Shown here: positions 31,027 to 43,089 of the stretch, in pieces | How the letters are laid out: the number at the start of each line of letters is the position of its first letter | Position numbering within the stretch: position 1 is the first letter of the stretch | NCBI GenBank assembly: GCA_963797855.1 | Contig: CAWCQX010000003.1 | Location: 10,642 to 74,641, forward strand | Direction of reading: 5' to 3' | Length of the DNA stretch: 64,000 nucleotides | Origin: an uncultured Chloroflexia bacterium | Lineage (GTDB): Bacteria; Chloroflexota; Limnocylindria; QHBO01 | Notes under the pieces: generated by a model | The model's input: the letters and a program-made list of their open reading frames with translations, nothing else | What the model was told of the DNA's origin: nothing | Databases searched by the model: none | Position numbers and translations under genes: made by a program

Positions 31027-31103
31027 GCCGCATTCGTCTAGAGGCCTAGGACACCGCCCTCTCAAGGCGGAGATCACCGGTTCGAATCCGGTATGCGGTA
31101 CCA
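31027..31103 (+). tRNA. tRNA-Glu (anticodon CUC), CCA encoded
   Basis: GCCGCAT acceptor stem pairs with ATGCGGT. D-loop TCTAGAGGCCTAGGAC. Anticodon stem CCGCC/GGCGG with loop CTCTCAA. T-arm GGTTCGAATCC. Ends in ACCA. Confidence 0.9.
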
Positions 31104-31191: not shown

Positions 31192-32133
31192 TCAGGTTGC
31201 GCGCCAGAACAGCCAGGCGTCGCGCATCCGCTGGACCTGGCCCGGGGTGAACTGCGTGATGCACGAGTCGTCCGAGTAGTCCATGTAGTTGTGGATCGGG
31301 TCGAGACCCGGAGCCGGGCAGGTGTCCTTGCCCTCGGGCAGCCGGACGTCGCGGACTTCTGGGGCGGCGTGTCGCTGACGAAGTCGCCGTTCTTGTTGCA
31401 CTGCCCGAAGAAGGTGTGCTCGAGGTTCAGCCAGTGGCCGGCCTCATGGGTGAGCGTGTCGCCCTCATCGGAGACGCCTGCGTATTCGGTCGAGACGCCG
31501 GGCATCGTCCGCCAGTCGATCACGATGCCGTCGAGGTAGGCCTGGGCGGTGTCGGTGATCTCGGGCAGATACGCGTAGCCGAGAAGGGCTCCGCCGCTCG
31601 TCGAGTAGACGTTGAGGGCGTTATCGCCACCCTGCTTCAGCGCTCGCTTCATGTCGTGCTCGGCGCCGGCTGACTGGGACCTGATACCAGACGGCGTTGT
31701 TCGTGCGGGTGACGCCGGAGAGCGAGAACGTGAAGCCGGTGGCCGCCCCACCCTCGCCGCCGCTGAAGCCACGGTTGATCGCGCTGATCTGGCTGTGGAT
31801 CTGCGCATTCGTGACGGCGCCCGCGGCACCGTCCGTCACGACGTGCCAGTACACCGGGACGGTGACCGAGAAATTGCTCGGCGCGCGGCCCTTGGCCGCC
31901 TTCGGGAGGTCGTGAACGACCTGGGCTGTGTCCTTGTCGCGGACAAGACCGTGGCTGTCGACCGACCCGCCTCGGGCTTCGGCGCTCGCGCCCGCGGCAG
32001 CGGCGATCTCATCCGGAGAGCACGCCCAGGCGGGCGCGCCATTCCCCGCGGGCGACGCCGTGGCCGGGCCGGCCAGCGAGAGGGACAGGGCGGCCGACGC
32101 GAACAGGGTCAGGGCGCGACGTACGACGGTCAT
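31192..32133 (-). pseudogene. Secreted M43-family (pappalysin/ulilysin-like) zinc metallopeptidase; frame broken at ~31678 and ~31335
   Basis: Signal peptide MTVVRRALTLFASAALSLSLAGPATA. Zinc site [15 protein letters not shown]-terminus [39 protein letters not shown] is recovered in a third frame (ORFs 31621-32148, 31074-31829, 31192-31401). Confidence 0.75.
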
Positions 32134-32216: not shown

Positions 32217-35200
32217 CTAGCTCCCGACGTTCGCTGCGGTGGCCGCCGTCAGCTCGTCGAGGAGCGCACGGGCGCGCGCGGCGGCGGGAAGGACCTCCTT
32301 GCGCTCGTAGCGCTCGAGCGCATCGATGACGACCGGGATGGCCTCCTCCCGGCGGCCGGCCACCAGCAGCACCTCGACGAGGTCCATGAGCGCCGCGGTC
32401 TGCGTATCGACCCGATCGGTCCGCAGCGCGAGCTCGACCGCTTCCCTGGCGAGCGCCTCTCCCGCCTCGACCTCGCCACGCTGCGCGAGCAGCAGCGCTC
32501 GCACCCCTCGCCAGGTCACCTGCGCGGCGATCCAGCTCCTGGCTGCGGCCTGCTCGGAGATCGTCGCGAGCTCATCGGCCTCCTCGTATCGGCCCAGCGC
32601 ATACAGGCAGCGCGCGAGCCAACCGGCGGTGAGGGAGAGGTAGCTCTTGTCGCCCATCGACGACAGCTCCTCGTAGGCTCGTCGCAGCTCGAGCTCGGCC
32701 GCGTGCCAATCTCCGCGGACCATCTCGATGTAGTACCCGAGGCCCTCGCCGCGGGACATCGCCGCTCCGGGGAGGTCGCCGAGGACCTGCCGGTCGGCGA
32801 CGCCCTTGAGGATCATCTCGCGGGCCGCATCGCGCTCTCCGAGCATCCCTCGCAGCTGGCCGAGGAAGCACAGCGCGTACGCCTCGGCGCCGCGATGGCC
32901 GCGAACCCGCTCGAGGACCTCCGATCCCTCCACCAATGCGCGTGAGGCGGGGGTCGGGCCGAACGAGAGCGCGACGATGATGCCGACCAGGTCGTCGTGC
33001 GGATAGTGCGGATCCTTCGCCCGCGAGTCGAACTCGTAGGCGCGCTCAGCGGGCTCGCGCATGCCCTCGAGCTGGCAGAGGCCGTACCGAGCCCAGCTCA
33101 CGAGGCGCCAGGCGCGCGCGGCGCTGAAGTCGTCGCCGTTCGCCTCGCATCGTGCCGCCATCGCCAGCCCTTCGGCCTCGAGCTCCGCGTAGTCCACGTC
33201 CGGGTCGACCTGGAAGCGAAGCCGCAGCTGCGAGAGGTACGAACGGATGCGCGTTCGCTCGTCACCAGCTCGATCCGCCAGCTCGATCGCCTCGGCCAGG
33301 GCGCGGTCGGCGTCCTCGAATTGCCCGGCCCACAGCAGCGCGTCGCCGAGGTCGCCGAGGAGCTGCGGGCGTCGTGGATCGTCGGGCGCCATCAGCGCCA
33401 GTGCTCGGGATCGGAGCTTGACCCCGGCGCTCGTGTCCCCGCGCGAGGAGGCGGTCCATCCGGCGCCGGCGAGGCGATCGGCCGCGCGTCGCGCCAGCTC
33501 CGCTCCGCGCTCGTCGATCGGGCCCAGCTCCGCCAGGTACCGATGCGCCTGCTCGAGGTGCCAGCCGACGATCTCGGCGTACTCGGCCAGGCGCTCGCCG
33601 GCGGTTCTCTCGAGCCAGTCGGCAAAGCGGGCGTGGAGGTCGGCGCGGGACTCCTTGGTCACCGCGTCGTAGGCGGCGTCCCGGATCAGGAGATGGCGAA
33701 ATTCGAACGCTTCCTCGTCGCGGAAGTCCGACCGGCTCGGGCGAATGAGCTCCTTGCGAACCAGCTCGAGCAGGAGGGACGGGATCCGCATCGCGAGGTC
33801 CGGGCTCGACAGATCCGCGACCGCGCCGACATAGAAGGTCTGGCCCATGACCGCCGCGCGGCCGAGAACGGCACGCTCGTCCGGGCCGAGGAGCTCGAGG
33901 CGCGCCGCGAGCAGCGCGTGGATCCCGGGCGGGACGGTGACGTTGTCGAGGTCGCCCACGGCCACCCAGCGACCGTCGAGCGACTCCAGCTTGCCATCGT
34001 CGATGAGCATCGAGATCAGCTGCTCGATGAAGAGCGGGTTGCCCTCGGCGCGACCCGCGACGTGATCCCGAACCTCCGGGAGGCTCTGCGTCTCGCCGAG
34101 CAGCTCCGCGATCAGGCGGTCGCAGGCGGCATCGTCCAGCGGCTCGAGCCGCACGACCGTGCTGGGGCCGGCGCCCGCGCTGTGCCCCCATTCCGGGAGC
34201 CGCTCGAGCAGCTCGGGGCGGCTGGCGCAGAGCAGGACGATCGGGACCGACTCGGAATGGCGCGCGAGGTTCTCGATCAGCTCGAGCAGCGTCGCCTCGG
34301 CCCAGTGCGCATCGTCGAGGAGGACGACGAGGGGACGCTCGGCGGCGAGGGTCGCGAACAGCCTTCGGACCGCCCAGAAGCCCTCCGCGACGACGCCGGT
34401 CGTCTCCTTCAGGCCGGTGATATGGGCGATCGTCTCGGCGATCGAGTGAGCGTCGTCATCGGGCGGGAGCAGCGCCTCGATCCGCGCCACGCTCTCGCCC
34501 GGTCCTTCGTCCTCCTGGATCCCCGCCGCCTGCCTGACCATCTGGGCCAGCGGCCAGAACGTGATGCCCTCGCCGTACGGGAGGCACCTGCCGCGGAGCA
34601 CCGTCGCGCGTCCGTCGAGGGACTCCACGAACTCGTGCGTCAGTCGCGACTTGCCGATGCCCGGACCTCCGACGACCGTGACGAGGCGGCAGTCGCGCTC
34701 GGCCTCCGCTCGCTCCAGCACCCATTCGAGCTGGGCCAGGGCATCCCGGCGGCCGACGAGCGGAGCGTCGAGTCGAGAGGCCGCATCGGGTCCCTCGCGG
34801 AGGGCAAGCAGGCGGTAGGCACCGATCGCGTCGCGCTTGCCCTTCAGCTCGAGGGGTGCCAGCCGCTCGGCGTCGACGGCATCGCGCACGAGCCGGTACG
34901 TCGACTCGGCGAGGAGGATCTCGCCCGCCTCCGCGTGCTGCTGGAGGCGGGCCGCCGCGTTGGCCGCGTCGCCGGCAACGAAGTTGCGATCGGGAACGAG
35001 GCCCTTTCCGGCGACCGTCCCCGTGTTCAGGCCCGTGCGCGTCGCGAGGGTGACGCCATACCGTCGCTGGAAGTCGTCGTTCAGCCGGGCGAGCGTGTGC
35101 CGCATCTCGACCGCTGCGCGCACGGCGCGCAGCGCATCGTCCTCGTGAAGCTCGGTCAGGCCGAAGACCGCCATCACCGCGTCGCCGATGAACTTCGCGA

Positions 35201-35441
35201 GCTTCCCTCCATGCCGCTCGACGACGGGCCCGACCCCCTCGAAGAAGGCGGTCATGACCTGGTCCAGCGTCTCCGGGTCGAGCCGCTCCCCGAGCCCCGT
35301 GGAGTCGACGACGTCGGAGAAGAGGATCGTCACCACTCGGCGGAAGCGCTCGGCGGGCTGTTCGGGCAACGCCTCCCCGCAGGCCAGGCAGAACCTGGCT
35401 CGCTCGGGATTCTCCTCGCCGCAGACCCGGCAGATCGGCAC
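32217..35441 (-). CDS. Zinc-ribbon + class III nucleotide cyclase + P-loop (STAND/AAA_16-like) NTPase + TPR-like repeat protein
   Basis: 1074-aa intact ORF. Zinc ribbon CRVCGEENPERARFCLACG. Cyclase motifs VTILFSDVVDST, KFIGDAVMAVFG, GDAANAAARLQ. Walker A VVGGPGIGKS at ~aa 257-265. The C-terminal ~600 aa are helical-repeat rich. No HTH seen. Confidence 0.85.
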   Translation of the reverse strand: MPICRVCGEENPERARFCLACGEALPEQPAERFRRVVTILFSDVVDSTGLGERLDPETLDQVMTAFFEGVGPVVERHGGKLAKFIGDAVMAVFGLTELHEDDALRAVRAAVEMRHTLARLNDDFQRRYGVTLATRTGLNTGTVAGKGLVPDRNFVAGDAANAAARLQQHAEAGEILLAESTYRLVRDAVDAERLAPLELKGKRDAIGAYRLLALREGPDAASRLDAPLVGRRDALAQLEWVLERAEAERDCRLVTVVGGPGIGKSRLTHEFVESLDGRATVLRGRCLPYGEGITFWPLAQMVRQAAGIQEDEGPGESVARIEALLPPDDDAHSIAETIAHITGLKETTGVVAEGFWAVRRLFATLAAERPLVVLLDDAHWAEATLLELIENLARHSESVPIVLLCASRPELLERLPEWGHSAGAGPSTVVRLEPLDDAACDRLIAELLGETQSLPEVRDHVAGRAEGNPLFIEQLISMLIDDGKLESLDGRWVAVGDLDNVTVPPGIHALLAARLELLGPDERAVLGRAAVMGQTFYVGAVADLSSPDLAMRIPSLLLELVRKELIRPSRSDFRDEEAFEFRHLLIRDAAYDAVTKESRADLHARFADWLERTAGERLAEYAEIVGWHLEQAHRYLAELGPIDERGAELARRAADRLAGAGWTASSRGDTSAGVKLRSRALALMAPDDPRRPQLLGDLGDALLWAGQFEDADRALAEAIELADRAGDERTRIRSYLSQLRLRFQVDPDVDYAELEAEGLAMAARCEANGDDFSAARAWRLVSWARYGLCQLEGMREPAERAYEFDSRAKDPHYPHDDLVGIIVALSFGPTPASRALVEGSEVLERVRGHRGAEAYALCFLGQLRGMLGERDAAREMILKGVADRQVLGDLPGAAMSRGEGLGYYIEMVRGDWHAAELELRRAYEELSSMGDKSYLSLTAGWLARCLYALGRYEEADELATISEQAAARSWIAAQVTWRGVRALLLAQRGEVEAGEALAREAVELALRTDRVDTQTAALMDLVEVLLVAGRREEAIPVVIDALERYERKEVLPAAARARALLDELTAATAANVGS

Positions 35442-35506
35442 GGACCGAGTCTAGGGCCGGGTGGCGCCATGTGGAACGTTCGGCCTGCGGTATCGTTCGC
35501 GCGCTG

Positions 35507-35971
35507 ATGGCCGACTCCCCGCCGATCCCCACGGACGCCTCACTCGGCCTCGTCGAGCGCGTCGCCGCGCTGCACCGCACCGATCTCTTCGCGGGTGTCC
35601 CCGGGCGAGTGCTCGCCGCCGTCGCGGAAGCCACGACCGAAGTCCGCGCCGCTCCCGGCGACGTGCTGATCACCGAGGGTGCGGTCGACGCGCACCTCTA
35701 CGCCATCGTGGACGGTCGCGTCCGGGTCCATCGCGGCGGCGAGACGGTCGTCGAGCTCGGTCCGGGGGTCACCGTGGGTGAGCTGGCCGCCCTGGTTCCC
35801 CAGCCGCGGACGGCATCGGTGACGGCGCTGGAGCCGACGCTCCTCCTGCGCCTCGACAAGGCGGTGCTCGACGATCTTCTCGCCGACTGGCCGGAGCTCG
35901 CCCACGGCGTGATCGCCGTGCTCGTCGGGCGGTTGACCGAGATCGCGGAACGGGCCGACCGAGGCCAGTGA
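35507..35971 (+). CDS. Stand-alone cyclic-nucleotide-binding (CNB/CAP-effector) domain protein
   Basis: 154 aa from ATG 35507. LFAGVPGRVLAAVAEA...APGDVLITEGAVDAHLYAIVDGRV, with phosphate-binding cassette GELAAL...RTASVTA. Stop overlaps the next start (GTGA, 35968-35971). The alternative GTG 35471 is less likely. Confidence 0.8.
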   Translation: MADSPPIPTDASLGLVERVAALHRTDLFAGVPGRVLAAVAEATTEVRAAPGDVLITEGAVDAHLYAIVDGRVRVHRGGETVVELGPGVTVGELAALVPQPRTASVTALEPTLLLRLDKAVLDDLLADWPELAHGVIAVLVGRLTEIAERADRGQ

Positions 35972-38387
35972 CCAGCGCGCCCCCGCGCGGCGTCGTCGGC
36001 CTGCTGACCGCCCAGGCGCTCGCCTTCGGGGTCACCCTCGCGCTCCTGGTCATCCCCGCCAACGCGCTGTTCCTCGACGCGTACGGGTCGGAGTGGCTGC
36101 CCGCGACGTACATCGCCACCGCCGTCGTCGGCAGCCTCGCGTCGATCTTCATCGCCCGAGCGGCCCGCCATACCCGACTCGTTCGCCTGGCGACGGTCAC
36201 GCTCGGCGCGCTCGCCGCCGTGTACGCCGCGTCGTGGGTGATCCTCGTCGCCGGTGGCGTCTGGGTCTCGGCGGTCCTGCTCGTCGCGTTTCCGATCGCG
36301 CTCCAGCTTGGCTTCGTGTTCATCGGTGGCCAGGCAGGCCGGCTCCTCGACGTGCGGCAGATGAAGGAGCGCTTCCCGCGCATCGTGTCGGGGTTCGCGG
36401 TCGGGTTCTTCCTCGGCGGCCTGCTGGGGATCCCGCTCCTCTCGCTGCTTGGCTCGACCGAGCAGCTGATGCTCGCCACGACCGCCGCCGACATCGCGTT
36501 CCTCGGCCTCCTGATCGCCACGGAGCGCCGGTTCCCGGAGATCCGCGAAGCCCCGGCCGGCGAGGGGCCGGCGGTCGCGCGGCCGCCGTTGCGGACGCTC
36601 TTCGCTCCGGGCATCGTCCTGCTCCTGCTCATCTACCAGATCCTGTCCGCGATGGGGTCGCAGGTGTTCGACTTCCTCCTCTTCGACCGCGCCGCAACGC
36701 AGTACAGCGGGGATGAGCTCACCAAGTTCCTCTCCGCCTATACCGCGGTGCTCAACCTCGTCGACATCCTCTTCCTCGCGATCCTCGCCGGTCCGCTGAT
36801 GCGGCGATTCGGACTGCGTCTCGGCCTCGTCTTCAATCCCGCCGTCGTCAGCGTCGTGCTCGCCGTGATGACCGTGATCGCCACGGGGGGTAGCTCGGCA
36901 GCGTTCGGGCTCTTCGTGCTGGCCGGCGCGCTTCGCATCGCCGACATCGCGGCGACCGATGGAACGACCCGCACGTCGATCAATGCGGCGTTCCAGGTCG
37001 TTCCGATCGGCGAGCGCCTCGCGGTGCAGGCGGTCGTCGAGGGTGTCGGCGTGCCCGTCGCGATCGGCGTGACCGGGGTCATCCTCCTCGGGCTGAACAT
37101 CCTCGATCTCGGGATCGGTGCGGTGATCGTGTTCGGCCTCGTGCTCTCGGTCATCTGGACGGGAATCGCCGTCGGGGTGTATCGGTCGTACCGGCGAACG
37201 CTCGCCGCCCAGATGCGCCGGCGCTCGCTCCTCGCGGGTGCGGTTGGATTCGCCGAGGACGAGGCCTCGCTTCGCGAGCTCCTCCGGTCAACCGACGTTC
37301 GAGACGTTCGCCTCGGCCTCGACCTGCTTGCCGGCGTCGAGTCCGAGACATCCGGAGCCGACCTCCAGCAGCTGGCCGACCATGCCGATCCCGAGGTCCG
37401 CGTGCAGGGCACTCGTCGAGCTCGCCGTCCCGCGGAGACGCGGGGGCGGCCGCGGAGGTCGCGCCGCTCGTCGCCAGCCTCGCCGGCTCGGCCGAACCCT
37501 CGGACCGGCGCGCCGCCGCCGTGGCGATGGGCGCTCGAGGCGTCGTCGCCGACGATCGGACCGTCCTCATCGGCCTCCTGGGAGATCCGGACCGGACGGT
37601 GCGCGCCGCCGCGCTCGATGCCGTGGCGCCCGAGGATGGCGCGGACGAACGGGTGATCCGTCACGTGGTCGCAGCGATGGGAGAGCCACGCACCGCCGGA
37701 CCGGCGGCCGACGCGCTGAAGCGGCTGGGCGAGCCGGCCATCCCGTTCCTGGTCGCTGCGCTCGCCGGCGAGCACGGGCCAAGGCGGCCGTGCCTCGTCC
37801 GGGCCGCGGCCGGAGCCGCGGCCACGCACGGCGTGACGATCATCGCGCCGGCGCTCCGCGACCCGGATCGGGACGTCGTCCTCATCGCCCTCGAGGCATT
37901 GGACGCGGCCGGCGGCGCCGACGTCGTCCTTCCGGTGATCCTCGACGACATCTTCCGCGACGCGGCAGCGCATGCGGCGCGCGCGCAGGCGGCGCGAGCC
38001 GCCATCGAACCAACCGATGACCCGCTCCATCGAGCACTGGACGACGAGCTCGAGCTTGCGCGAAGGCTCGTCATCGCCGTGCTCGCGCTGCGGCACGGCG
38101 ATCGGGTCCGTGAGGCCGTTCGGGTCGCGGATTTCGCGGACGGACAACGCCGCGCGCTCGGAGTCGAGGCGCTCGAGGTGATCCTCTCCCGCGAGGAGGC
38201 CGAGGTCGTCCTCCCGCTCGTCCGGCGCGAGATCAGGAAGGGTGCCTCGCTGCGAGCCGCGGAGATCGGGCGCAGCCGGGAGCAGTGGGTCGCCGACATC
38301 GTCGCCGACCCGGACGCGGTCTGGCGCTCGTCGTGGCTCGCCGCGTGTGCCCGCCATGCATCCGCGCGGGCGGGAGACCCGGGATGA
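35968..38387 (+). pseudogene. Multi-TM NTT(ATP/ADP-translocase)/MFS-like transporter fused to HEAT repeats; frame broken at ~37406 and ~37428
   Basis: The first ~430 aa carry ~12 hydrophobic segments (LLTAQALAFGVTLALLVIPANALFLDAYGSEWLPATYIATAVV...). The C-terminal half has HEAT-like repeats DPEVRV(R)ALVELA, DPDRTVRAAALDAV, RDPDRDVVLIALEAL. Pieces are ORFs 35968-37656, 37238-38020 and 37521-38387. Confidence 0.65.
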
Positions 38388-38394
38388 GGCGGCC

Positions 38395-39015
38395 CTATCG
38401 GGCTTCGGCAGACGCTCGCGCCTTGACCTCGACCACGCGATAGCGAAGGACGACGGCTCCGCCCTCGAAGGTCCGGCTCTCGACGAGATCGAGGGCCAGA
38501 TCGGCCTCGAGGCCGTCGAACAGGCCCGGGCCTTCCGCGAGCACGGCTGGGTGGATCGCGACGACGTACTCGTCGATCAGGCCCGGCGTCGCCGCCAGCG
38601 GGGCGAGCGTGCGAGGGCCGCACGACAGGATGATGTCGGCGCCGTCATCGGCCTTCAAGGCCGCAAGCTGTGCCGCCAGGTCGCCGTGGATCACCCGACG
38701 ATCCGCCGAGGGCTCGAGCGACGTCGAGAAGACGAGCTTGAGGAGGCCGTGCTGGATCGTCGCGAACTCGAGGTCCGCCGGATGGAGCTCGACCGCATCG
38801 TCCGGCAGCCGGCCGGCCGCGATCTCCTCCCACCACGGCACGATCGCGTCGAACATCCGCCGGCTCATCGCCCAGGTATCGGCCCGACGGAAGACCTCGT
38901 TGATCCATGCCTGCTCCGGCTCGCCCCACGGAAAGGGCTCCCAGAACACCCCGAACTCGCTCGAGCCGATCCGGTTGTTCAGCGTCGTCTGCATGACGAC
39001 GACGATCCGTCTCAT
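38395..39015 (-). CDS. Dihydrofolate-reductase-like (RibD C-terminal domain) family protein
   Basis: From ATG 39015 (MRRIVVVMQTTLNNRIGS...), with DIILSCGPRTLAPLAATPGLIDEYVVAIHPAVLAEG. ATG overlaps the upstream stop (ATGA, 39012-39015). The N-terminal part of ORF 38395-39357 belongs to the upstream gene. Confidence 0.65.
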   Translation of the reverse strand: MRRIVVVMQTTLNNRIGSSEFGVFWEPFPWGEPEQAWINEVFRRADTWAMSRRMFDAIVPWWEEIAAGRLPDDAVELHPADLEFATIQHGLLKLVFSTSLEPSADRRVIHGDLAAQLAALKADDGADIILSCGPRTLAPLAATPGLIDEYVVAIHPAVLAEGPGLFDGLEADLALDLVESRTFEGGAVVLRYRVVEVKARASAEAR

Positions 39016-40366
39016 GGGGCGGCCGGCGCGATGTTCTGGTTCAGGTGGAAGACGTTGTCGGGATCCCACCGGCGCTTCAGCGCCGACAGCCGCTCGCAGC
39101 TTCGCGTCGCCGTAGGCGCGACGAACGGCCGCCTCGTCGTCTTCGACGAGCGCGTTGACGTAGACGCCGCTGGCGAAGGGCTCGAGCGCATCGCCGAAGG
39201 CGCGTGCCGAGTCGATGCGATCCGCGTCCTCGGCGGGATCGGCCCACGTGTGGCCACCGAAGAACTCCACGAGCGTGTCGCGGTGGCTGAATGCCGAGTC
39301 CTCGTTCGCCACGTCGGCGATCGCGCCGCCGTAGCCCTGGAGGCCGCCGGGCGCCACGCGTGACCAGTCGGCTTCGCCGGCCGCCGAGACGCCGCGGGTC
39401 AGGAAGGCCTCGATCGCGGGATCGGTCAGCTCGGTGAAGTAGTGGCCGTTGGCGTATCGCCGCAGGCCATGGTGGTGGTTGTGCGTCGCCGATGCTCTGG
39501 AGCTCGAGATAGCTCATCTCGACGACGCTCTCGTCGGCGGCCTGGCCGATGCTCCGCATCGTCGGCAGGTACGCACGCGCGTCGTCGGGATCGCCGACCC
39601 AGGCGTAGCCGATGAGGACGACGGGCCGGCCATCCACGGTCACGGCGTCCGCCGTCAGGGTCGCCTGCCGCGGCGCGTCGGGAAGGAGGTCGCGCCAGCG
39701 GCGCATCGGCTCGAGGGCGTCGGCAGCCGGGAAGGCGAGCTCGACGACGACCGCACGCCCGGCGACGGGGTGCAGGCGGAACGTGAACTCCGTCACGACC
39801 CCGAAGTTGCCGCCGCCCCCGCGCAGGCCCCAGTACAGCTCCGGCTCCTCCGAAGCGGTCGCGCGGACGAGCTCGCCGTCGGCGGTGACGAGCGTGTAGC
39901 GCTCGACGTTGTCGCACGCGAGGCCCGCCTGGCGGGCGAGCCAGCCCATGCCGCCACCGAGCGTGAGGCCACCGACCCCGGTGTGCGAGACGTTGCCCGC
40001 CGTGGTCGCGAGCCCGTGTGCCTGCGACGCGCGATCGAGGTAGCGGAGGAGCGCGCCGCCCTCGACGACGGCGCGTCGGGCGTCGGGGTCGACGGTGACC
40101 GTGGACATCGGCGAGAGGTCGATCATCAGGCCGCCCTCGGGCACCGAGTGGCCCAGGACGCTGTGGCCGCCGCACTTCACCGCGATCTCGAGGCCCTCCG
40201 CGCGGGCGTGGCGAATGGCCGCCGCGACGTCGTCGGGACTCGCGCAGCGGGCGATGAGCGCGGGCCGGCGGTCGACCATCGCGTTCCAGACCTCTCGATG
40301 CGCGTCGTACTCGGCGTCATCCGGACCGATCAGCGTGCCGCCGAAGCCACGGATCGCCTGTGTCAT
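39012..40366 (-). pseudogene. FAD-linked (PCMH/BBE-type) oxidoreductase; frame broken at ~39478 and ~39096
   Basis: From ATG 40366: MTQAIRGFGGTLIGPDD, IAVKCGGHSVLGHS, GVGGLTLGGGMGWLARQ, LYWGLRGGGGNFGVVTEF. The C-terminal BBE-like tail ERLSALKRRWDPDNVFHLNQNI lies in a third frame. Confidence 0.8.
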
Positions 40367-43012: not shown

Positions 43013-43089
43013 GTCCCCGTAGCTCAGTGGATCAGAGCAGCCGCCTTCTAAGCGGCCGGTCGCAGGTTCGAATCCTGCCGGGGACGCCA
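43013..43089 (+). tRNA. tRNA-Arg (anticodon UCU), CCA encoded
   Basis: GTCCCCG acceptor stem pairs with CGGGGAC. D-arm TAGCTCAGTGGATCAGAGC. Anticodon stem GCCGC/GCGGC with loop CTTCTAA. T-arm GGTTCGAATCC. Ends in GCCA. Confidence 0.9.

Follow-up and report, generated by a model that had tools for sequence, protein, structure and literature searches.

NTT carriers are known from chlamydiae, rickettsiae, microsporidia and plastids as transporters of energy parasitism. Proteins of this kind with HEAT repeats (NTT-HEAT) were described in free-living bacteria by Major, Embley and Williams (2017, Genome Biol Evol, PMC5381601), together with adjacent genes for cyclic-nucleotide-binding domains (cNBD) that immediately follow them and with NTT-HEAT-cNBD fusions. 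Control by cAMP was suggested in that work, with function untested; its sample included almost no Actinobacteria or Chloroflexi, and no adjacent cyclase was reported (PMC5381601). The present analysis deals with a three-gene locus in a stretch of 64,000 nucleotides, referred to here as the window, from an assembly labelled as an uncultured Chloroflexia bacterium (GCA_963797855.1, contig CAWCQX010000003.1, positions 10,642 to 74,641 of the forward strand). A gene for a class III nucleotide cyclase of the STAND type (32217-35441, minus strand) stands divergently beside a gene for a stand-alone cyclic-nucleotide-binding (CNB) protein (35507-35971, plus strand), and the latter overlaps the start of a gene for a membrane protein with HEAT repeats (35968-38387, plus strand).

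By its architecture, the window system appears to be a variant of the NTT-HEAT/cNBD family that is split, places the cNBD first and comes with a dedicated, lineage-specific STAND cyclase. As in the published family, an NTT-like domain of 12 transmembrane (TM) helices is followed by PBS-lyase/HEAT repeats, for which both HEAT and HEAT_2 (PF13646/PF02985) are matched in the C-terminal part, and a cNBD (PF00027) is encoded in the same operon or, in relatives, fused to the transporter. In contrast to the published cases, where the cNBD is downstream or C-terminally fused, the cNBD gene here lies upstream and overlaps the transporter start, and the TM domain is too diverged for the Pfam family TLC. 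The preliminary description of the locus knew of no characterised system with this architecture. The association of CNB and NTT-HEAT as such is not new and was already published (Major et al. 2017, PMC5381601). The function judged fairly probable for the locus is a local cyclic-nucleotide signalling circuit around an NTT-HEAT/cNBD-type transporter, the coupling seen so far being genomic only.

The link between the CNB protein and the transporter was followed in a survey of one genome per species (GTDB), which gave 72 loci from Thermoleophilia/Gaiellaceae, Acidimicrobiia, several Chloroflexota orders and one bin labelled Verrucomicrobiota, with identities falling to 32-35%. The window, taken to come from a soil actinobacterium, has a G+C content of 72%, and its closest relatives are Gaiellaceae/Thermoleophilia metagenome-assembled genomes (MAGs). 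The CNB reading frame ends at the inferred transporter start in 69 of the 72 loci, the three exceptions being two truncated contigs and one apparently frame-fused case, and a (G/A)TGA overlap is present in 61. In the window, the CNB stop and the GTG start of the transporter share GTGA at 35968-35971, so that the overlap first noted there, like the roughly 800-residue length and the C-terminal HEAT repeats, is real. Fusions of the same parts were also found, with the order TM-HEAT-CNB and one or two CNB copies (P0151, P0194, P0233, P0254 and P0263) or, in one or two representatives, CNB-TM (P0241), and the CNB domains of these fusions match that of the window at E values down to 8e-35. The survey shows the CNB and transporter genes to be a strictly conserved and, judging by their overlapping frames, translationally coupled two-gene unit in Thermoleophilia, Acidimicrobiia and Chloroflexota. 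The coupling of reception to membrane output, as first proposed, is strongly supported by the pairing, the overlaps and the fused relatives of the same CNB subtype.

The receiver itself is a protein of 154 amino acids, counted from its ATG, with a single Pfam domain (cNMP_binding, E = 7e-18, 64.8 bits against a cut-off of 27.5). An alternative GTG start at 35471 is in an open frame and would give 166 amino acids; the ATG at 35507, which lies 65 bp from the cyclase start on the other strand as originally reported, is part of an ATG(G/A)CCGAC start conserved in the orthologous loci. The phosphate-binding cassette (GELAAL-PQP-RTAS) is intact, and 77 of the 78 family members aligned, fused copies included, retain its Gly-Glu and Arg.

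Some variations around this unit were also recorded. The MAG MFD02809.bin.2.57 has two copies of the CNB-transporter unit (L015 and L018). In several Chloroflexota loci (L050, L054, L055, L058, L067 and L077 at ~12.7-15.2 kb, minus strand; L053, L057 and L064 at ~14.8-16.3 kb), the transporter is followed by a convergent gene for a protein of 650-800 amino acids in which a C-terminal cNMP_binding domain is the sole one recognised, and a protein with CNB and HATPase_c domains is encoded ~2 kb further, so that these loci look like gene clusters responsive to cyclic nucleotides (cNMPs). In L003 (5885-7567; the same as in L010), from a complete-chromosome MAG, the place of the cyclase is taken by a gene for a 560-amino-acid protein that has no Pfam family and precedes the CNB gene with a 4-nt overlap.

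The transporter is 805 amino acids long once two extra bases in its gene are skipped, a matter taken up below, and in this repaired form it is 96% identical, over the full length, to the intact 805-residue metagenomic protein P0001. Its TM domain spans residues 1 to ~425 (35968 to ~37242), and a cytoplasmic domain of HEAT / PBS-lyase-type repeats, matched by alphaRep and PBS-lyase repeats, covers residues ~430 to 805. No family in Pfam or NCBIfam was above threshold for the TM domain, with MFS_1 remaining below it. An exhaustive profile search of 1.84 billion representatives recovered 6557 relatives at E <= 1e-3, with 815 at E <= 1e-30. Among 48 diverse full-length relatives, HEAT_2 was matched in 40, MFS_1 in 12 and cNMP_binding in 6, and TLC was found below threshold in 4 (18-19.6 bits against a cut-off of 21 bits). 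When a profile built from 86 relatives was compared with the PDB, the sole membrane protein matched was NTT1 of C. pneumoniae (9j3n, E = 2.6e-4), and a profile of the TM domain only (32 relatives) had 9j3n as its sole match (E = 1.1e-4).

Structure prediction gave a similar picture. The AlphaFold2 model of the transporter has 12 TM helices and a HEAT solenoid (predicted local confidence, pLDDT, 91.4; predicted template-modelling score, pTM, 0.85); it was made with an alignment of the 86 diverse sequences, and a run with 24 close homologues gave a poor membrane domain (pLDDT 68). In a Foldseek search of the PDB, ranks 1-5 were taken by NTT1 of C. pneumoniae and Arabidopsis (E = 1.4e-7 to 5e-5, TMt 0.58-0.73), followed by NorA, LmrP, VMAT2 and other carriers of the major facilitator superfamily (MFS). 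The NTT1 translocators (PDB 9j3j-9j3o) are the closest solved fold, at 12-14% identity; the characterised NTT1 proteins, unlike the window transporter, have neither a HEAT domain nor a CNB partner. A near-identical copy of one fused relative carries the JGI name "ATP/ADP translocase". The profile and fold comparisons indicate that the membrane domain is a distant relative of the NTT ATP/ADP translocators. The preliminary description, in which the protein was of ATP/ADP-translocase/MFS type with about 12 TM segments, is thus borne out for the helices and for a distant NTT kinship, and not for the Pfam TLC family by which such carriers would be recognised. The profile searches that had been recommended there matched Guanylate_cyc, AAA_16, cNMP_binding and HEAT in the three proteins, left TPR and MFS_1 below threshold and found no TLC. 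When the TM domain of a fused member with two CNB copies was used to look for homologues, 6 matches were obtained, none of them a named cyanobacterial or chlamydial NTT-HEAT protein.

The third component is the cyclase. An orthologous Zn-ribbon STAND cyclase is divergently adjacent to the pair in 10 genomes of the survey (L001, L007, L008, L012, L014, L019, L021, L026, L032 and L060), and eight of the nine trio loci tested (L001 was left out, and L012 is the exception) share none of the other genes that flank the locus in the window within 10 kb. The full trio occurs twice in the MAG MFD10007.bin.2.119, on separate contigs (L019 and L026). In a neighbour-joining tree of the TM domain, the loci with a STAND cyclase are spread over the subfamily of the window, its basal branch included. 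In the sister subfamily, the cyclase of all 8 members has a receiver (REC) domain instead and is adjacent to the pair or 4-6 kb away; an independent REC-cyclase is located directly upstream of the pair in L040 (Ilumatobacteraceae), and a cyclase with three GAF domains and a PAS domain (GAFx3-PAS) directly downstream of it in L024. Counted per gene and not per domain match, cyclases number 11 per 100 kb within 1 kb of the pair and 1.3, 2.5 and 0.3 at distances of 1-4, 4-7 and 7-10 kb, that is, the density next to the pair is ~4- to 30-fold that at 1-10 kb. These data support generator, receiver and output as a recurrent but non-obligatory arrangement, in which the adjacent STAND cyclase probably supplies the signal to the CNB-transporter pair.

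Paralogues of the STAND cyclase have other company. In L078 and L079 (6001-10857), a paralogue of 58% identity is immediately followed by a 540-amino-acid fusion of MFS_1 and cNMP_binding, which is a second, different cNMP-linked transporter beside a STAND cyclase in the same organism group. In L080 (5271-9207) and L083 (2537-6470), a paralogue of 46-47% identity has a Crp-type regulator (cNMP_binding and HTH_Crp_2) 10 bp upstream and is followed by a NAD synthase gene, and in L080 a protein with Peptidase_M50 and cNMP_binding domains is encoded nearby as well.

Several observations weigh against a dedicated circuit around an NTT-type carrier. No cyclase was found within 10 kb of the pair in 44 of the 72 genomes; the pair can therefore work with a distant or global source of cNMP, and the trio is not obligatory. 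Roughly half of the window's own subfamily is without an adjacent STAND cyclase, and two of five genomic contexts of STAND-cyclase paralogues are without a CNB neighbour. On the transporter side, neither the window protein nor any of four close relatives matched TLC (PF03219) at a limit as lenient as E <= 10, and the alignment of the profile hidden Markov model to 9j3n covers only the C-terminal half with low posterior confidence, placing the TKEMAY motif of NTT1 opposite TSINAAY. As TLC was not reached and TKEMAY finds no counterpart in this low-confidence alignment, nucleotide transport by the window protein is weakly founded. Apart from Major et al. 2017 and two papers that cite it, the literature search turned up no work on the function of NTT-HEAT or CNB-MFS proteins. 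Lastly, five of the six small insertions and deletions (indels) described below are insertions outside homopolymers, which is not the textbook signature of sequencing error. The synteny on which the three-gene signal module first proposed was to be checked is present in the ten genomes, mostly with different flanks, and does not extend to the loci without a nearby cyclase.

Those loci would suit a different view, in which the cyclase and the CNB-transporter operon are mere neighbours, with the pair reading the cAMP pool of the whole cell and the STAND cyclase acting on targets elsewhere. The many STAND-cyclase paralogues of these genomes, two of them without a CNB neighbour, can be counted in its favour along with the incomplete linkage. 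It is harder to reconcile with a trio that is kept in at least 8 genomes with otherwise unrelated flanks and duplicated as a unit in one MAG, with three other cyclase architectures that have independently come to fill the adjacent position, and with the sharp peak of cyclase density within 1 kb of the pair. Chance proximity is for these reasons considered unlikely.

A second doubt concerns the transporter gene of the window itself. DNA alignment with the intact L002 (95% nucleotide identity) and L001 (86%) locates two single-base insertions at 37404-37427 (plus strand), namely one additional G at ~37404 and one additional C at ~37425. The frame is shifted by +1 twice within 21 nt, from frame 1 to frame 2 (37406-37426) and then to frame 0 (from 37428). 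After repair, the junction peptide VRVRALVELASRGDA is identical to that of P0001. The gene could be a true, recently inactivated pseudogene, leaving the module dead in the genome of the window though the family is functional elsewhere, and two uncompensated +1 insertions outside homopolymer runs, in a place where the gene content differs from that of the closest relative, are what such a gene might look like. Against this, the ratio of nonsynonymous to synonymous substitution rates (dN/dS) of the repaired gene relative to L002 is 0.18 for the part upstream of the breaks and 0.17 for the part downstream, equal to the 0.19 between two intact orthologues, and no stop codon occurs in the 320 codons past the breaks. 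A problem of sequence quality is also indicated by two more conserved genes within 9 kb, each of which shows precisely two 1-nt indels when set against the syntenic contig L001: the Peptidase_M43 gene (31195-32133, minus strand) at 31335 (-1) and 31684 (+1), and the FAD_binding_4/BBE oxidase gene (39021-40366, minus strand) at 39094 (+1) and 39482 (+1). The cyclase gene, the CNB gene and eight other genes are free of indels when compared with the L001 proteins, and similar fragmentation is seen in many long-read MAG loci of the transporter family. Because neighbouring genes carry similar paired indels and dN/dS is not relaxed, assembly indels are more likely than a dead gene, which we regard as improbable, and the pattern suggests that the window comes from an indel-prone assembly.

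Programmed frameshifting was considered for the two breaks and rejected: the orthologues are uninterrupted at both sites, and the shifts, 21 nt apart, have no slippery motif in common. Just beyond the transporter, a RibD_C (dihydrofolate-reductase-like) gene of 205 amino acids (38395-39012, minus strand) is contained in a segment of ~660 bp that is absent from L001. Owing to the frameshift at 39094, the open reading frame finder joins this gene to the end of the oxidase gene, which gives a spurious frame of 320 amino acids.

The cyclase of the window is intact and 94% identical to its L001 orthologue, without frame breaks. Its 1074 amino acids (32217-35441, minus strand) comprise a Zn ribbon (residues 4-24, 35370-35432; Pfam Zn_Ribbon_1), a class III cyclase domain (residues 36-204, 34830-35336; Guanylate_cyc, 69.6 bits against a cut-off of 21.9), an NTPase of the STAND/MalT type (residues 227-403, 34233-34763; AAA_16, 79 bits) and a TPR-like helical repeat region, the presumptive sensor (residues ~640-1074, 32220-33524). 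The Walker A (GGPGIGKS) and Walker B (VVLLDDAHW) motifs were read directly from the sequence, and NCBIfam TOMM_kin_cyc gives a partial match over the cyclase and NTPase only. For the first three domains, Pfam matches and motifs agree with what had been described. The TPR-like repeats are a mixed case, as TPR families score below the Pfam threshold on the window protein, with precomputed TPR_MalT and TPR_12 matches on record for its orthologues.

No helix-turn-helix (HTH) or other DNA-binding domain is among the Pfam matches of the cyclase, as was first reported; by comparison, an AAA_16-GerE protein near the pair in L004 does show an HTH. In the mycobacterial Rv0386-type proteins, the same N-terminal class III cyclase, MalT-type P-loop NTPase and helical repeats are followed by a LuxR HTH. 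The window cyclase differs from these in lacking the HTH, in its extra N-terminal zinc ribbon and in the retention of the substrate Lys; Rv0386 has Gln/Asn at the specificity positions. Since there is no LuxR HTH, the output of the window cyclase would be a cyclic nucleotide only. The description of this architecture as divergent was mistaken: a word-index search gave at least 7993 matches at E <= 1e-10 among 8000 candidates scored, and the best of those listed combine Guanylate_cyc, AAA_16 and TPR under the name "class 3 adenylate cyclase/TPR repeat protein". Without an HTH, the architecture is extremely common.

The cyclase looks active, judging by its residues. Besides a profile score above threshold, it has both metal-binding Asp residues (D43 in FSDVVDST and the Asp in KFIGDAVM) and the Asn/Arg pair (ANAAARL), all conserved in every full-length orthologue, and the Lys four residues ahead of the second metal Asp (KFIGD) is conserved too. 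The domain thus does not align as catalytically dead, which had been named as an outcome that would speak against the module. The best solved relative is CyaB of P. aeruginosa (3r5g), and in the ungapped register with CyaB the purine-specifying Asp/Thr position is occupied by Phe, in agreement with the alignment made by hand at the outset. The base-specifying loop (DRNF--VAGD) is 2 residues shorter than in canonical cyclases. The Phe and the shortened loop are conserved in the orthologues, and similar ones occur in the other STAND cyclases of L068 and L074. Thus, the canonical adenine-specifying pair of Lys and Asp/Thr is represented in this cyclase by its Lys only, and with the Asp/Thr replaced by Phe and the loop shortened, the product cannot be read from the sequence.

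In the signalling circuit favoured here, the STAND cyclase would remain inactive until its TPR/NTPase part binds a cue, and NTP-dependent oligomerisation would then pair two cyclase domains into a dimeric active site. The cNMP produced would most likely be cAMP, a point that the replaced base-specifying residue leaves open. This product would bind the CNB protein, which might in turn dock on the HEAT domain and change transport activity, with a nucleotide or nucleotide-like anion as the guessed substrate, given the distant NTT kinship. A comparable working logic is known in cyanobacteria, where SbtB, a small regulator that binds cAMP and adenine nucleotides, is co-transcribed with the transporter SbtA, binds its cytoplasmic face and modulates it. 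The likeness ends there: SbtB has a PII fold and not a CNB domain, SbtA is a bicarbonate carrier of another fold, and SbtA-SbtB, unlike the window trio, has no HEAT domain and no dedicated cyclase gene.

A stricter form of the circuit can be drawn from the active site. The STAND cyclase might make a nucleotide other than cAMP (cGMP, cCMP, cUMP or another) that serves as a private messenger for the co-encoded CNB protein only, so that the three components would form an insulated circuit and switch an NTT-type carrier. This is thought quite unlikely; if true, it would be the first defined physiological role, and the first regulator, for NTT-HEAT proteins in free-living bacteria.

It could also be asked whether the TM-HEAT protein transports anything. 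As a membrane-anchored scaffold or receptor (a "transceptor"), it might recruit the CNB protein and other partners via its HEAT domain, which equals the membrane domain in size. In favour of this are also the lack of a match to any Pfam transporter family and the TKEMAY motif, which the aligned C. pneumoniae NTT1 chain has and for which no evident equivalent is seen here. Yet the predicted fold is a complete 12-helix MFS/NTT fold of high confidence, polar and charged residues are invariant within the membrane domain (D127, R124, N289, D330, R334, Q342, R349 and E357), and a loop resembling MFS motif A (GGQAGRLLDVR, by our own reading) is typical of working carriers, all of which makes a pure scaffold very unlikely.

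The Pycsar systems resemble the window locus in that a class III cyclase is encoded next to a CNB domain that is linked to a membrane protein, and STAND NTPases are frequent in defence systems. Here the CNB protein is separate, its partner is a full MFS/NTT carrier with HEAT repeats, the cyclase is a 1074-residue STAND sensor, and the distribution appears conserved and vertical. That the cyclase should, on infection, make a cyclic (pyrimidine) nucleotide by which the membrane protein is converted, via the CNB protein, into a toxic pore, the defence logic first named for such pairs, is scarcely credible in spite of the non-canonical base-specifying residue and of the PADLOC PycC and Pycsar-effector models (E = 1.5e-18 and 1.1e-21), as the latter match only the generic cyclase and CNB domains and nothing in the transporter, the CNB is not fused to a TIR domain or a short TM effector, the pair is conserved under strong purifying selection across three phyla, its partner cyclases carry sensors of housekeeping type (REC, GAF, PAS), and its neighbours are metabolic, with no defence or mobile genes around it.

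Between the cyclase and the CNB gene lies a divergent intergenic region of 65 bp (35442-35506). On the minus strand, a TAGACT hexamer (35449-35454) that resembles an actinobacterial -10 box ends 7 nt ahead of the cyclase start codon, and GAGTCTA varies hardly or not at all among the 10 orthologous intergenic regions that were aligned. The plus strand has a TAnnnT-like hexamer ~10 nt ahead of the CNB ATG. Both hexamers may be -10 boxes of leaderless or near-leaderless transcripts, and the placement of TAGACT suggests a leaderless cyclase mRNA. A scan for consensus sigma-70 promoters and terminators found nothing.

An Rfam scan of the whole window identified two tRNAs only, tRNA-Glu(CTC) and tRNA-Arg(TCT), at 31027-31103 and 43013-43089. 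Some small differences in gene content relative to L001 are at or near these genes. Two genes of L001 (3745-4250 and 14500-15374) have no counterpart in the window: a Pterin_4a/Glyoxalase_6 gene, which is absent at the very position of the tRNA-Arg, and a glyoxalase gene that L001 has between Peptidase_M43 and the cyclase.

The window trio is not a new kind of system, and there is no pointer in it to a new biochemical principle. What differs from the 2017 description is the gene order, with the cNBD first and translationally coupled, the lineages in which the unit is found and a wider distance from canonical NTTs. The retention, in thousands of free-living bacteria, of HEAT-fused NTT relatives tied to a CNB domain has been a niche question since 2017, and the slot next to the pair proves to be filled repeatedly by cyclases with interchangeable sensors (STAND, receiver, GAF-PAS). 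The window trio and its relatives offer a compact, clonable set of generator, receptor and output, with which the function and regulation of the family could be tested directly.

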